Below, piece after piece: positions 3,288 to 17,405 of a DNA stretch of 64,000 nucleotides (the first letter of the stretch is position 1; each line of letters opens with the position of its first letter). The DNA is from Mycobacteriales bacterium (lineage in GTDB: Bacteria; Actinomycetota; Actinomycetes; Mycobacteriales; CADCTP01): assembly GCA_039648995.1 (NCBI GenBank), contig JBBWZH010000045.1, positions 2,821 to 66,820 on the forward strand, in the 5' to 3' direction. The position numbers and the translations under genes were made by a program. The notes under the pieces are model-generated. The model was given only the letters and a program-made list of their open reading frames with translations, ran no database searches and had not been told where the DNA came from.

Positions 3288-4592
3288 ATGTCGGGAAGTT
3301 CCCCGCCAGGTTCCGCAACCGCGGATCGACCTGTGCGAACGCCCGACGACGCGCCGCCCCGACGCAACGAACGACTGCTGATCCTGTTCACCGGCACGAC
3401 GAACACCGCCGACGCGGTGGCCCGGGTTTCCCTCCCGCTGTTGGCCGTCCAGCTCACCCGGTCGCCGGCGCTGATCGCCGGCGTGGCGATCATGATGACG
3501 CTGCCGTGGCTGTTGATCGCGCTGCACGTCGGCGTGCTGGTGGATCGGATGAACCGGCGCAGCCTGATGCTCGGTGCCGAGCTGGCCCGGCTGGTCTCGG
3601 TCGGGGCGCTGCTGGTCGCTGTCGCCGCCGACATGACCAGCCTGGTGCTCCTGTACGCCGTCGCGCTGGCTCTCGGCGTCGCGGAGGTGGTCGCCCAGAT
3701 CGCCGCCGCGTCGATCATCCCCGCCGCGGTCCCGAAATCGCGCTGGCAGAAGGTCACCGCGCGGATGACCGCGACCGAGTACGTCAGCTTCAGCTTCATC
3801 GGCGCGCCGATCGGCGGCTTCCTGGTGGCGGCCGGCTTCACGATCGCGCTCGGCGCGACGGGCCTGGTCTACATCGCCGGCGCCGTGCTGCTCGCGCTGC
3901 TCGTCGGCAACTTCTCGGTGCGGTCCGGCGCGGAACGCCGGCCGGCCCACGTGGAGATCGGCGAAGGCCTGCGGTTCCTCTGGACCAACCAGCTGCTGCG
4001 GGCGATGGCGCTGCTCATCACGATCATGGCCGGCTGCTGGGCGGCCTGGTACGCCATCCTGCCGGGCTACGCGGTCGGCGGGCCGCTGGGGCTCGTCTCG
4101 CGGCAGTACGGTTTTCTGCTCACCAGCCTCGGCGCCGGCGGCGTGATCGGCACGGTGCTCGTCGGGCCGGTCAACCGCCTGCTCGGCCGGCGGTGGTCGA
4201 TGTTCATCGACATCATCGGCACCGTGCTGCTCGTCGGCCTGCCGGCCGCGCTGCCGTCGGCGCCGACGAGCGCATGGGCGATCGGCGCCGCGGCGTTCTT
4301 CGCCGGCGCCGGCGGGACGATGTGGACGGTCAACTCCCGGGTCATCATCCAGTCGCTGGTGCCCAACGAGCTGCTCGGCCGGTTCAGCGCCGCCAGCCGT
4401 CTCATCGCCTGGGGGATGACCCCGGTGGCGGCCGCGATCGCCGGCGTGCTGGCGCAGCTGTTCAGCTACCGGCTGGCGTTCGGCGTGTTCGCGGTCATCT
4501 GCGCGCTGCTGGTCTACCCGTTCCTGCGGGTGATCACCGTCGAAGCGCTGGCGCCGGTCGACCGCCCTGAGCCGGCGGAGGTCACCGCGTGA
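3288..4592 (+). CDS. MFS transporter (EntS/siderophore-exporter-like), probable product exporter
   Basis: ORF 3249..4592 with its start moved to the ATG at 3288 behind the GGAGG. About 12 hydrophobic segments and the MFS loop motif GVLVDRMNRR. Confidence 0.85.
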   Translation: MSGSSPPGSATADRPVRTPDDAPPRRNERLLILFTGTTNTADAVARVSLPLLAVQLTRSPALIAGVAIMMTLPWLLIALHVGVLVDRMNRRSLMLGAELARLVSVGALLVAVAADMTSLVLLYAVALALGVAEVVAQIAAASIIPAAVPKSRWQKVTARMTATEYVSFSFIGAPIGGFLVAAGFTIALGATGLVYIAGAVLLALLVGNFSVRSGAERRPAHVEIGEGLRFLWTNQLLRAMALLITIMAGCWAAWYAILPGYAVGGPLGLVSRQYGFLLTSLGAGGVIGTVLVGPVNRLLGRRWSMFIDIIGTVLLVGLPAALPSAPTSAWAIGAAAFFAGAGGTMWTVNSRVIIQSLVPNELLGRFSAASRLIAWGMTPVAAAIAGVLAQLFSYRLAFGVFAVICALLVYPFLRVITVEALAPVDRPEPAEVTA

Positions 4593-6259
4593 ACCGCGTC
4601 CTGGTGACCACGCCGGCACAGACCCCACCGCTGACCGCGGGGGCGGGCGGTCCGGCCCGCGCCGGCGACCCGGCCGGGACGCTGTTCACCTGGTTCCGGG
4701 CCGCCGCCCAGCGCCATCCGGAGGCCGCGGCGATCGAGGTGCACGCGGACGCGGTCAGCTACCGGGAGCTCCTCGTGCTGGCCGAGCGGCTCGCCGCGGC
4801 GCTGGTCGACGCCGCGGGTCGCCGACCGGTCGCGGTCGGGTTGCTCGGCGCCCGCAGCCTCGCCACGTACGCCGGGTATCTGGCCGCCCTGCGGCTCGGC
4901 GCGACCGTCGTCCCGCTCAACCCGTCCTTCCCGGCCGACCGCAACCGGGCGATGTGCGTCGCGGCCGCGGTCGACGTGCTCGTGGTCGACGAGGCGGGCG
5001 CGGCGCAGGCCGACGACGTGGCGGCCGGCACCGCCATGACGGCGCTCCGGCTGCTCTCCGGCGCGGAGTCCGGGCCGGGGTCCGGCCCGGAGCCGGGGCC
5101 GGTGCGGTGGCCGGCGCTGCTGCCGGCGCCATGGCCGGAGCCGTACGCCGGCACTCCGGCGGACGTCGCGTACACGCTGTTCACCTCCGGCTCCACCGGT
5201 GCGCCGAAGGGGGTACCGATCCGGCACCGCAACCTGGCCGCCTACGTGGGCTTCTGCGTCGACCGCTACCAGGTCGGGCCGGGCTGCCGGCTCTCCCAGA
5301 CCTTCGACCTGACCTTCGACCCGTCGGTGTTCGACATGTTCGTCGCCTGGAGCTCCGGTGCCACGCTGGTGGTGCCGCAGCCGGGCGACCTGCTCACCCC
5401 GGCGCGGTTCGTCGCCGCCAACGGGATCACCCACTGGTTCTCGGTGCCGTCGGTGGTATCGATCGCCCGGCGGCTGCGTGGCCTGCGCCCCGGCAGCATG
5501 CCCACCCTGCGGTGGAGCCTGTTCGCCGGTGAGCAGCTGACGCTGACGCAGGCGCGCGACTGGGCGGCCGCCGCCCCGGGCAGCACGCTGGAGAACCTCT
5601 ACGGTCCGACCGAACTCACCATCACCTGCACCGGCTACCGCCTGCCCGCCGATCCGGAACTGTGGCCGCGGACGTCGAACGGCACCGTGCCTATCGGCAG
5701 CGTCTACCCCCACCTGGACGGCCTGATCGTGACCGAGGACGGGCGCGCCGGCGAGGACGGCGAGCTGTGCGTCCGGGGGCCGCAGCGGTTCGACGGGTAC
5801 CTCGACCCGGCCTGCGACCGGGCCCGGTTCGTGCGCTACGCCGACGCGCGGGCGACGGTGACCGACGGCACGCCGGTCGCCGGGGACTGGTACCGGACCG
5901 GGGACCGGGTCCGGGTCGAGGGCGGCGAGCTGGTGCACCTGGGCCGGCTCGACGACCAGGTCAAGATCCACGGCTACCGCATCGAGCTCGGTGAGATCGA
6001 ATCCGTGCTGCGCGAGCATCCGGCCATCCACGACGTCGTCGTGCTGCCCGTGCCGGCCGGCAACGGCGAGTTGGAGCTGCGGGCCGGCTACACCGGCCGG
6101 CCGTTGGACGCCGGGGAGCTGGCCGGCGCGGTCGGCCGGCGGCTGCCGGCGTACATGGTGCCGGCCCGGATCCGGTACGTCGACAGGTTCCCGGTGAACG
6201 CGAGCGGCAAGGTCGACCGCCGCCGGCTCGCCGCCGAGCTCGACGCCGCCGGCGACTGA
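4589..6259 (+). CDS. Stand-alone adenylation (AMP-binding) enzyme
   Basis: 556 aa with LFTSGSTGAPKGV (A3), FDPSVFDMF (A4), YGPTE (A5), YRTGD (A8) and NASGKVDRRRL (A10). No carrier domain. GTGA overlap with the MFS stop. Confidence 0.9.
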   Translation: MNRVLVTTPAQTPPLTAGAGGPARAGDPAGTLFTWFRAAAQRHPEAAAIEVHADAVSYRELLVLAERLAAALVDAAGRRPVAVGLLGARSLATYAGYLAALRLGATVVPLNPSFPADRNRAMCVAAAVDVLVVDEAGAAQADDVAAGTAMTALRLLSGAESGPGSGPEPGPVRWPALLPAPWPEPYAGTPADVAYTLFTSGSTGAPKGVPIRHRNLAAYVGFCVDRYQVGPGCRLSQTFDLTFDPSVFDMFVAWSSGATLVVPQPGDLLTPARFVAANGITHWFSVPSVVSIARRLRGLRPGSMPTLRWSLFAGEQLTLTQARDWAAAAPGSTLENLYGPTELTITCTGYRLPADPELWPRTSNGTVPIGSVYPHLDGLIVTEDGRAGEDGELCVRGPQRFDGYLDPACDRARFVRYADARATVTDGTPVAGDWYRTGDRVRVEGGELVHLGRLDDQVKIHGYRIELGEIESVLREHPAIHDVVVLPVPAGNGELELRAGYTGRPLDAGELAGAVGRRLPAYMVPARIRYVDRFPVNASGKVDRRRLAAELDAAGD

Positions 6260-6272
6260 CCGCCACCCCGAT

Positions 6273-16900: not shown

Positions 16901-17163
16901 TGGCGCAGCGCGGGCTGGACGGTGACGAGGGTGACGAGCGCGTCGGCCACGGCGGCGGCGAGCGGCGGCGCGGGATCGCCCGGGCCGGCAGGTGGCAGGA
17001 CGCACATCGCCGGGTCGAGGTCGAATTGCATGATCTGGTTGTAGATCTCGCGGGTCGGCACCAGCGTGTCGACCACGAGCAGCCCCTTCTGGGACTCCGT
17101 GATCGGCAACGGCGACGCCGCGGCGGCCGGCCCGGGGGCGAGCTCGGTGCTGGCCGCCGTCAC
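13945..17163 (-). CDS. NRPS module C-A-T
   Basis: ORF 13945..17208 with its start at the GTG at 17163 (GTGA overlap with the ACP stop). C motif AHHIVGDGVS. A motifs FTSGSTGRPKGV, FDVSFQE, YGPTE, YRTGD, GKTDRRAL. Carrier motif EYGAHSLNIF. Confidence 0.9.
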   Translation of the reverse strand: MTAASTELAPGPAAAASPLPITESQKGLLVVDTLVPTREIYNQIMQFDLDPAMCVLPPAGPGDPAPPLAAAVADALVTLVTVQPALRQVFTLVPEMRGALLPPPDRAGLPLESLRVAPADYEDGLAEMARRVGRPPFELTVGPLYRFGFVEATDGSAAAVQLSAHHIVGDGVSIGPIVRDLEAALTGTLTGAAVESRRVERETAFGKELRAQNRVAGSAQTAAKAEAWARRLVDVPPLVLYPRPNRPTETDFAGARLSWLLDQGEAEQLQATCRRLNITPFVALTGIYGTVLARHGAVSTVLVGSPFAARRTIGAFDLCGFFVNTLPVTVEVDWQRTVDDHLGGTVRAAADYCRANVDVTFNQLVARVQPDRPANRNPLFAAMLAMQDTVDASSAGAVRGVREPGNGTAKFDLWLGATPRDGRWLLELEYDRSLIPAAVAGGLLDSLRTALRRAISDGGCRLADLFDGADGPRPRGDGVAVRVPFPTLSEWFDDTARRTPDAPAIEDPAGRLTYADLAAAAERIAGGLRRHGVGPGSVVGLHLDNLGDTTAAILAALRRGAAYLPLDSSLPTDRLAYMVAQAGCGVIVGTGLDLAGVPSVGIEELAGADPAPSAADPGSAVYIMFTSGSTGRPKGVQLGHRPLLNLTAWQLAALGMTGTSRFLQYAPAGFDVSFQEIVPTLLAGGTVVSREPADRRDFPALVRRVAETAVSHVYLPVAALRPFVQSARTAAAHLPALRYLCVSGEQLIVDDEIRQFFVDHPDCVLVNHYGPTETQAATTRRLAGGDPGWPRHVPIGLALPNVATHVVDATGHLAPVGVPGELYLGGSAPADGYVNDPERTAAAFLPDRFGAGPGAVLYRTGDVVVQDEHGALVYLGRDDTQLKIRGHRVELGELEAVATGAPGVRQAVATARGDGADRELVLFLAPEPAGSIDHDAVRRALTGALPAYMVPARIFELDQVPTTAAGKTDRRALTTLADRLVADQRTDAPAGAPAGYADEVERAIAEIWSTVLTVPVVERDRPVTEYGAHSLNIFAALGQVQQHFGVAVQPVDFFRSPTVATLAALVRAGGGA

Positions 17164-17405
17164 GCGTCCACCCCGTCGCCCGGACCGGCGGCGAGGCTGT
17201 GCAGCCACACTTTCAGATCGCCCACGGTGTGGACGTCGACCAGCCGGCCGGCGTCGATCTCGGCGTCTTCGTCGGTGGCGACCTCCACAGCGAGCCGCAG
17301 CAGCGACAGTGACTCCAGGCCGGCGTCCAGCAGGGTGGTGGAATCGTCGAAACTGACCGTGGCGTACTTGGCGATCGTCGAGTCAAGGTCCAGCTGTGCG
17401 GTCAT
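17160..17405 (-). CDS. Free-standing acyl/peptidyl carrier protein
   Basis: 81 aa, acidic, with LDAGLESLSLLRL (DSL-type Ser site). It is the first gene of the coupled operon. Confidence 0.8.
   Translation of the reverse strand: MTAQLDLDSTIAKYATVSFDDSTTLLDAGLESLSLLRLAVEVATDEDAEIDAGRLVDVHTVGDLKVWLHSLAAGPGDGVDA

Follow-up and report, generated by a model that had tools for sequence, protein, structure and literature searches.

Dissociated or type II nonribosomal peptide synthetases (NRPSs), in which adenylation (A), carrier and condensation (C) proteins stand alone, are familiar from enterobactin (EntE/B/F), vibriobactin, pyoluteorin (PltF/L), C-1027 (SgcC1/C2/C5) and congocidine. The locus described here lies on a Mycobacteriales contig (JBBWZH010000045.1), within a 64,000-nucleotide (nt) stretch that we call the window and to which all position numbers refer. 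It shares with those systems free A enzymes that would load free carriers in trans, a termination protein (C-T-TE: condensation, carrier and thioesterase domains) that has no A domain, a type II thioesterase (TEII) and a dedicated 4'-phosphopantetheinyl transferase (PPTase). It also encodes a protein, X-CP, in which a domain left blank as “X” in an earlier note on this DNA, made from the sequence alone, is fused to a carrier of its own; to our knowledge, none of the systems just named has a papain-like fusion of ligase and carrier alongside canonical C domains. Judging from its modeled fold, X probably serves as a third catalyst of amide formation, one of a non-canonical kind.

The class of protease-like, carrier-dependent amide ligases to which X is best compared was not defined until 2026, on the basis of a few NRPS-independent pathways. 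A paper of January 2026 described CtaG as a “papain-like, PCP-dependent peptide ligase” (PCP, peptidyl carrier protein) that follows a ping-pong mechanism through its C11/H128/D144 triad. Its homologues were given as AsbE, BtrH and MllDE, the last a carrier-transacylase fusion, and AziU2/U3 and CcbD were named as the sole structural relatives that had been solved (PMC12865890). In CcbD and LmbD, a Cys-His131-Glu triad serves to transfer a prolyl group, tethered to a carrier, to an amine (PMC12945683).

A predicted papain-like domain fused to a carrier

An AlphaFold2 model of X-CP, built from a 40-member alignment (predicted local distance difference test [pLDDT] 87.8, predicted template modeling score 0.84), has an alpha/beta part at residues 1-180, with Cys28 placed before a helix and His130 and Asp142 on consecutive strands, and then long helices at residues 187-317 that form a helical subdomain, followed by the linker and the carrier. 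This is the bipartite fold of the papain-like, PCP-dependent ligases: a papain-like N-terminal part and a helical C-terminal part. When the X part was compared with the PDB by Foldseek, only three families were returned, all with probability 1.0: AziU3/U2 (E ~1e-7, 22% identity), CtaG (eight entries, ~3e-5 to 1e-4) and CcbD (E=0.017), which are exactly the families grouped around CtaG in PMC12865890. Cys28 (LDCLQ), His130 (EHSF) and Asp142 (VDAYH) are invariant in 40 X-CP homologues at 35-61% identity, and their spacing, compared by residue position, is like that of the CtaG triad and of His131 in CcbD.

Sequence profiles give no link to these enzymes, so the relationship of X to the ligases rests on the fold. 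Neither Pfam (at E<=0.01) nor NCBIfam found a match in full-length X-CP or in residues 1-229; phmmer of X-CP against PDB sequences returned low-complexity and ribosomal P-protein noise and one weak carrier match. A profile of the X domain did not reach CtaG, CcbD or AziU3/U2 among PDB sequences, and in a search of 5.8 billion proteins it recovered nothing but further X-CP fusions, and none of its matches was a named, more distant relative. The sole sequence-level bridge is to the butirosin ACP:aminoglycoside acyltransferase system (BtrH/BtrI; ACP, acyl carrier protein): nine of the 40 homologues match BtrH_N (PF14399) weakly and in the right register, at 14-17 bits against a gathering cutoff of 29.7, and the X-CP of the window itself has no BtrH_N match in the Pfam scans.

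That the C-terminus of X-CP is a fourth carrier, as the earlier note had proposed, is upheld by family, profile, fold and an invariant serine, although the window protein itself stays below the Pfam cutoff: against PF00550 (cutoff 20.8 bits) it scores 16.2 bits at full length and 20.3 bits (E=7e-4) when the last 90 amino acids (aa) are taken alone. PF00550 is matched in 38 of the 40 homologues (best 2.7e-7), the family profile matches solved carrier proteins (E=4e-6), the C-terminal four-helix unit of the model matches ACP and PCP structures at TM 0.7-0.8 by Foldseek, and Ser424 is invariant within a conserved (N/D/S)SFRL motif across the alignment of 40. We regard these lines, taken together, as decisive, and accept four predicted carriers, that of X-CP included. 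The linker that joins it to X, ~65 aa long, far exceeds that of the homologues, which show gaps here in the alignment, and residues 328-373 are disordered (pLDDT <50). Short tandem DNA repeats at 11373-11531 (the arrays found by TRF) and 11811-11847, with periods of 9, 12, 15 and 6/18, encode (DDT/DDA)n, (AVPAA)n and (GA)n stretches; the window protein has 470 aa vs 350-430 aa in its homologues, and its linker looks recently expanded.

Each described system resembles X-CP in part. CtaG (closthioamide; carriers CtaH/CtaE) shares with X the bipartite fold (TM ~0.63 on the target, probability 1.0), similar Cys-His-Asp positions and a setting among stand-alone carriers and a PPTase, yet the two are 7-9% identical with no sequence-level match, and the likeness of activity is a predicted one; moreover, CtaG is a free enzyme of a pathway that has no canonical A or C domain, whereas X is carrier-fused and has two canonical C domains in its operon. 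In MllDE (methylolanthanin) and in AsbD/AsbE (petrobactin) a carrier is coupled physically or genetically to a papain-like transacylase, as in X-CP, but these are NRPS-independent siderophore systems with aryl acid donors; compared by description, the order in MllDE is apparently carrier-transacylase (to go by the gene names), whereas in X-CP it is transacylase-carrier with the disordered linker between. CcbD/LmbD (lincosamide; PDB 7YN2) has a protease-like fold with His131 where X has His130, takes a carrier-tethered prolyl donor, forms its amide by a ping-pong route and cooperates with a stand-alone A domain; unlike X, it has glutamate as the third member of its triad, a free amino-sugar acceptor and no carrier fusion, and its pathway lacks a canonical C domain. 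The best structural match, AziU3/AziU2 (azinomycin; PDB 7WUW, 8GS1; ~340 aligned columns), is an aziridine synthase and no transferase, made of two proteins without a carrier domain, whereas X is encoded in a single gene and fused to a carrier.

The NRPS core and its adenylation domains

The locus is almost certainly a real amino-acid NRPS cluster. Because the window has ~75% G+C, genes were judged by their third-position G+C (GC3); all of the open reading frames (ORFs) named in the earlier note have a GC3 of 0.87-0.98 in the called frame and an uninterrupted translation, and the ten genes with their domains all lie where that note had placed them, backed by hidden Markov model matches or, for the carrier C-terminus of X-CP, by family and fold (Table 1). 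The minus strand carries, in order, ACP, C-A-T, TEII, a short-chain dehydrogenase/reductase (SDR), X-CP, PPTase, A1 and C-T-TE, and the plus strand a major facilitator superfamily (MFS) transporter and A2. Metagenome contigs with an identical A1 give independent calls for PPTase (205 aa), A1 (526 aa) and C-T-TE (805 aa) that match the lengths in the window. The identical A1 protein was found only on such short contigs (L085, L086; Logan SRR27584663, JGI 3300049001), and the species-representative reference genome collection holds no near-identical X-CP (best 57% identity).

Table 1. Predicted features of the locus, by window position, with the evidence for each.
Feature	Position	Strand	Evidence
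PRMT-like (SznE-like) arginine N-methyltransferase, 385 aa	131..1288	-	PrmA, PRMT_C; PRMT7/9 structures, E ~1e-44
Rieske [2Fe-2S]-type protein, 107 aa, CPHRG...CPWHG	1285..1608	-	Sequence, GC3; PF00355 on the L003 orthologue
SznF homologue, 447 aa	1605..2948	-	E=6e-87 to PDB 6M9R
MFS efflux transporter (EntS/H+ antiporter type), translationally coupled to A2	3249..4592	+	MFS_1, MFS_3; TIGR00900, EntS
Free adenylation enzyme A2, 556 aa	4589..6259	+	AMP-binding; TIGR01733
C-T-TE termination protein, 805 aa, HHVVLDG, GGRSL, GWSMG, no A domain	6334..8751	-	Condensation, PP-binding, Thioesterase
Free adenylation enzyme A1, 526 aa	8815..10395	-	AMP-binding; TIGR01733
Sfp-type PPTase, 205 aa	10460..11077	-	ACPS, 4PPT_N (Pfam); HetI, AcpT, Npt (NCBIfam)
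X-CP, whole gene, 470 aa	11074..12486	-	GC3, overlaps
X-CP carrier domain, residues ~386-470, Ser424 in NYSSFRL	11074..11331	-	PP-binding, family profile, model
X-CP linker, disordered, Ala/Pro/Asp-rich	11332..11526	-	pLDDT, alignment gaps, TRF arrays
X domain of X-CP, residues ~1-320, papain-like part and helical subdomain	11527..12486	-	Alignment, AlphaFold2, Foldseek
FabG-like SDR, 247 aa, NNAG and YxxxK	12483..13226	-	adh_short, adh_short_C2; FabG-type NCBIfam matches
TEII, 241 aa, GWSLG	13223..13948	-	PF00975, 76.6 bits
C-A-T module, 1072 aa, HHIVGDG	13945..17163	-	Condensation, AMP-binding, AMP-binding_C, PP-binding (Pfam)
Free-standing carrier protein (ACP/PCP), 81 aa, Ser in GLESLS	17160..17405	-	PF00550, 25.2 bits, above cutoff; orthologues 66-88% identical
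SARP-family regulator (BTAD, Trans_reg_C, NB-ARC), directly upstream of the NRPS operon	17479..19665	-	Orthologues in L003, L005, L008
Precursor cassette: ProB, ProA, class I/II aminotransferase, PxpA/B/C-like 5-oxoprolinase, arginase-family hydrolase	19809..27068	+	

A dissociated, amino-acid-activating NRPS with three A domains, two C domains, TE, TEII, SDR, PPTase and four carriers, as the earlier note had listed it, is what the domain searches recover. Each of the three A domains scores above the TIGR01733 “amino acid adenylation domain” cutoff of 317.4 bits (the A domain in cis of C-A-T at 344.4, A1 at 323.1 and A2 at 322.6), which speaks against the alternative that they are aryl- or fatty-acid-activating enzymes. 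The C domains score 135 and 191 bits against PF00668 and resemble the peptide-forming C domains of solved NRPSs; the nearest solved structures are those of Txo1/2, TomB and the fuscachelin C domains for that of C-A-T, and of Txo1/2 and PvdL for that of C-T-TE. Catalytic motifs are intact throughout: HHxxxDG in both C domains, GxSxG in both thioesterases, NNAG/YxxxK in the SDR and the four carrier serines. PF00550 is matched above its cutoff by the ACP and by the T domains of C-A-T and C-T-TE, each with the predicted serine motif for phosphopantetheinylation. No MbtH-like signature occurs in six-frame translations of the whole window and no epimerization domain in any Pfam scan, again in agreement with the earlier note. 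Where that inventory falls short is in X: the two C domains are there, but X is not blank, and the bond-forming catalysts were probably undercounted. The dissociated architecture, the TEII genes, the in-cluster PPTase and the four-base overlaps are textbook features.

A1 and A2 are 48.6% identical over 533 aa and each is 32-33% identical to the in-cis A domain; the A4 strings FDGSIVEIF and FDPSVFDMF are both present, the FD motif, whose Asp235 would hold the alpha-amino group, occurs in A4 of all three A domains, and the two free enzymes are indeed paralogues with different specificity-pocket residues, as first read. The nearest solved relatives of A1 are amino-acid-activating (LgrA A2, IdnL7-type stand-alone ligases, PltF and DltA). 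Stachelhaus codes were derived by hand, anchored on the FDxS, GGE-like, NxYGPTE and GKxDR motifs, and read DVQ(Y/L)CSHAAK for the in-cis A domain, DGVMFGCVTK for A1 and DPFFLALITK for A2; position 278 is ambiguous, since fixed-offset extraction disagrees with motif anchoring owing to indels of 3-6 residues. The in-cis code is near-invariant across the family of related loci described below (DVQYCS(H/L)A(A/V)K). The canonical proline code is DVQLIAHVVK; the in-cis pocket resembles such proline-type codes, which would fit the ProB/ProA pair and the 5-oxoprolinase genes nearby.

The pockets of A1 and A2 are neutral, with no acidic residue beyond Asp235 in the hand-derived codes, and so would not favor the cationic substrates (Arg, N-methyl-Arg, Orn) suggested earlier; a neutral ureido or N-oxygenated arginine derivative is possible for A1 or A2. 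That the A1 code tracks the SznF-like cassette was rejected as firm evidence: DGVM(F/M)GCVTK is found in all five SznF-positive loci and also in L030 and L054, which have no such cassette within the flank retrieved. The pairing of A1 and A2 with the free ACP and X-CP, also proposed earlier, does not follow from three A domains facing four carriers or from the gene order in relatives, where A1 adjoins X-CP in L003 and the ACP in L014 and L018.

A cluster family with alternative cassettes

X-CP has many relatives: 97 clusters at 90% identity from a single query, 226 protein clusters from a profile and 196 loci in reference actinomycete genomes (~200), all annotated “acyl carrier protein” or “hypothetical.” We classified 84 loci (labeled L001 onward) by inspection of gene neighborhoods and by tblastn. 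The conserved core consists of ACP, C-A-T, TEII, X-CP, A1, C-T-TE, A2 and MFS. ProB, ProA and the aminotransferase are syntenic in the window and 12 related loci (L003, L005, L008, L012-L014, L016-L018, L021, L030, L054), and the core set stands with them in L003, L005, L008, L013, L014, L017, L018, L021, L030 and L054; the hosts of this type are Solihabitans, Kutzneria, Amycolatopsis, Actinokineospora, Labedaea and Actinophytocola. In the metagenomic locus L003, synteny with the window extends from ProB/ProA as far as the protein arginine methyltransferase (PRMT)-like gene. Gene order varies considerably: in Amycolatopsis-type loci the genes are split into ACP-A1-CTTE-MFS-A2 and CAT-TEII-(SDR)-XCP, the SDR is missing from L008, L014, L018, L030 and L054, and the PPTase is missing from other loci.

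A larger group, to which most X-CP loci belong (L001, L002, L004 and many others), has in their place an aldehyde dehydrogenase resembling ProA, two additional carriers, a PALP enzyme, one more free A enzyme (the third), a decarboxylase of the ornithine/diaminopimelate (Orn/DAP) type, a pair of acyl-CoA dehydrogenases and a distant X paralogue that stands free and has a similar Cys motif (e.g., 17111-18061 of L001); L002 has an adjacent sulfotransferase as well. A phmmer search with the free paralogue gave no link to AziU3/U2, CtaG or CcbD. This alternative cassette recalls the logic of AziU2/U3 and of BtrH/BtrK; its BtrK-like decarboxylase adjoins a carrier. Solihabitans fulvus has both cluster types, that of the window with the SznF-like cassette and that with the decarboxylase and acyl-CoA dehydrogenases, on different contigs (L006/L001 and L008).

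The cassette beside A2 and its transporter resembles that of streptozotocin SznE/SznF in altered form. As in SznE/SznF, a PRMT-like methyltransferase goes with a full-length SznF homologue; the window differs in that the SznF homologue lacks the cupin histidines, a Rieske gene lies between the two and the cassette stands beside an NRPS. All seven di-iron ligands of the HDO (heme-oxygenase-like diiron oxidase) domain (E189, E215, H225, E281, H311, D315, H318) are kept in the window and in four orthologues, whereas the cupin histidines H407, H409 and H448 are replaced by Q/K/R, A and Y, respectively, in the window and in the orthologues of L003, L005, L008 and L029. The three-His mononuclear cupin iron site needed for N-N bond formation in SznF is accordingly absent from the window homologue, and this pattern of residues suggests guanidine N-hydroxylation without N-nitrosation. 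NRPS-associated, ChmM-type SznF homologues have the opposite pattern of kept and lost sites (PMC11177257). The SznF homologue of the window, with its di-iron site and Rieske partner and no cupin metal site, offers a natural test of an HDO domain uncoupled from N-nitrosation.

The Rieske gene was hidden within the longest-ORF call of the PRMT-like gene; it has GTGA overlaps on both sides, is kept beside the SznF homologue in L003, L005, L008 and L029, and may encode the electron donor of that enzyme. Given the Rieske gene, the GC3 and the overlap, the PRMT-like gene starts at 1288 and not at 1492. On the far side of the NRPS operon, ProB and ProA are second copies, both above the NCBI equivalog cutoffs. 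The ATG of ProA (21200) lies three bases past the ProB stop codon, and the ProB ORF has an N-terminal extension of ~115 aa, so that its true start is probably further downstream. The aminotransferase matches aspartate aminotransferase and the guanitoxin cyclodehydratase GntC with roughly equal scores, and the short arginase-family protein (268 aa) gives 81 bits to arginase.

No description of this cluster family, or of an X-CP fusion among canonical NRPS domains, was found in the searchable literature; as far as that literature shows, neither the conserved actinomycete family nor the transacylase-carrier fusion within it has yet been described. The X-CP family would add to the ligase class members that are fused to a carrier, share an operon with canonical C, A, T and TE domains and have been hidden behind an “acyl carrier protein” label, and such a compact ligase-carrier module would be attractive for engineering. 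For genome mining, the family marks a widespread type of orphan biosynthetic gene cluster (BGC).

A proposed route, its rivals and the gene overlaps

We consider it reasonably likely that the locus is an orphan, non-linear, “type II-like” NRPS that makes a short peptide from three adenylated amino acids with X as a ligase. In such a route the Sfp-type PPTase would prime the four carriers, the in-cis A domain would load its own T domain, and A1 and A2 would load carriers in trans, one of which must be the T domain of C-T-TE, as that protein, having no A domain of its own, requires trans-loading. The ProB, ProA and 5-oxoprolinase cassette would probably supply glutamate-5-semialdehyde, pyrroline-5-carboxylate (P5C) or proline, and the PRMT-like, SznF-like HDO and Rieske cassette would probably supply a derivative of arginine that is both N-methylated and N-hydroxylated. 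Peptide bonds would be the work of the two canonical C domains; X would accept onto Cys28 an acyl or aminoacyl group held as a phosphopantetheine thioester, most simply on its own fused carrier, and, with His130 and Asp142, pass it to an amine in ping-pong fashion, as CtaG, CcbD/LmbD, BtrH and AsbE do. The terminal TE would release the product, the TEII would edit stalled carriers and the MFS transporter would export the product. With three A domains for four carriers, one carrier has to obtain its substrate, or hand it on, by some means other than adenylation, which is consistent with one of them being a transacylation partner and not the client of an A domain.

For the step that is particular to this locus, the one assigned to X, we lean, though not strongly, toward a ligase. 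Several points weigh against the proposed route: X is linked to the ligases by predicted fold only, with BtrH_N matches far below cutoff; its best structural neighbor, AziU3/U2 at 22% identity, forms an aziridine and is not a ligase; synteny gives conflicting hints as to which carrier each A domain would load; and the specificity codes match no code that can be assigned with confidence. The second of these points opens the way to an X that, like AziU3, is a cyclase or eliminating enzyme and reshapes a substrate on its own carrier, for example by ring closure on a glutamate-semialdehyde-derived or hydroxylated unit, which would leave amide formation to the two C domains. AziU3/U2 is the top Foldseek match, at an identity well above the 7-9% of CtaG; the azinomycin azabicycle starts from a glutamate semialdehyde derivative, and the ProB and ProA of the cluster make glutamate semialdehyde; and the free X paralogue of the alternative-cassette relatives, one of which (L002) has a neighboring sulfotransferase, could mimic the AziU2/U3 pair. 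AziU3/U2 acts together with a sulfotransferase through sulfate elimination, however, and neither an X-type paralogue nor a sulfotransferase was seen in Pfam scans of the cluster proteins of the window (131-27068). The invariant Cys-His-Asp at CtaG/CcbD-like positions and the fusion to a carrier fit thioester chemistry, and actinomycete composition bias may inflate the 22% identity; on balance we hold an AziU3-like X to be unlikely.

A papain-like fold is ancestrally hydrolytic, and the window protein has no significant Pfam match in X; C, TE and TEII already cover condensation, release and editing. X might also be imagined as a hydrolase (a papain-like thioesterase or peptidase) or as a silent docking scaffold, with X-CP serving simply as a fourth carrier loaded by A1 or A2, much as the earlier note pictured an NRPS of two C domains. 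A third hydrolase would be redundant beside TE and TEII, though, and a silent scaffold sits badly with the strict invariance of C28, H130 and D142 at the divergence of the 40 homologues. Since, moreover, all characterized carrier-dependent members of the fold class are transferases (PMC12865890, PMC12945683), we judge this explanation quite improbable. Returning to X as a ligase, a bolder version would make X-CP a self-contained ligase module inside a canonical NRPS, giving one assembly line two unrelated peptide-bond catalysts, and would have it graft an N-methyl-N-hydroxy-arginine-derived unit in the present cluster; we put this forward tentatively and with more doubt than belief. If true, that unit would come from a cupin-dead SznF homologue with a Rieske partner.

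The gene junctions were the other feature stressed by the earlier note, which took seven GTGA overlaps to imply strict stoichiometric co-translation. The overlaps themselves are all where it had put them: five coding-strand start/stop overlaps in the NRPS operon (17160-17163, 13945-13948, 13223-13226, 12483-12486, 11074-11077) and two in the tailoring operon, at SznF-like/Rieske (1605-1608) and Rieske/PRMT (1285-1288); an eighth joins MFS and A2 (4589-4592). That five consecutive operon junctions overlap by 4 nt, and that NTGA overlaps recur at equivalent junctions of homologous loci, might suggest a specific device that holds the NRPS subunits to 1:1 co-translation. In bacteria, though, no gene overlap is commoner than the four-base NTGA type, which gives coupling, not fixed stoichiometry; it is the most frequent kind of junction both in the window and among the related loci, it is seen in the window at junctions of unrelated operons (32687, 38413, 40117, 55831, 59523), and the GTGA tetranucleotide itself occurs 388 times over both strands. 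PPTase|A1 and A1|C-T-TE do not overlap at all, being separated by gaps of 64 and 63 nt, each with its own purine-rich Shine-Dalgarno-like sequence; stoichiometry cannot be enforced for A1 and C-T-TE, which have their own ribosome-binding sites, nor for A2, which is on the opposite strand. The relatives, finally, reorder the genes into other operons (two, differently ordered, in the Amycolatopsis type), sometimes without the SDR or PPTase, and this plasticity argues against a special need for the exact gene order or overlaps of the window. The overlaps are real, conserved and generic, a matter of ordinary translational coupling and no proof of strict stoichiometry, and we regard a dedicated stoichiometric device as highly improbable.

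The span ~131-27068 is the core of an orphan actinomycete BGC, which ends near 27.1 kb, where an SMC/DUF2397/DUF3323-DUF2399 operon starts. That operon (27218-35654, minus strand) encodes an SbcC/SMC-like ATPase of 1374 aa, DUF2397 and DUF3323-DUF2399 proteins and a faint JetD_C match; it resembles a four-gene, Wadjet-related system and forms the boundary of the BGC. Further along, a 468-aa protein (37163-38569, minus strand) with weak matches to WXG100 and a type VII secretion system signal domain is possibly a type VII secretion substrate, and two more very large ORFs with high GC3, at 41280-45674 (plus strand, 1464 aa) and 59944-63999 (minus strand, >1351 aa, running past the end of the window), could be additional megasynthase or other large genes.

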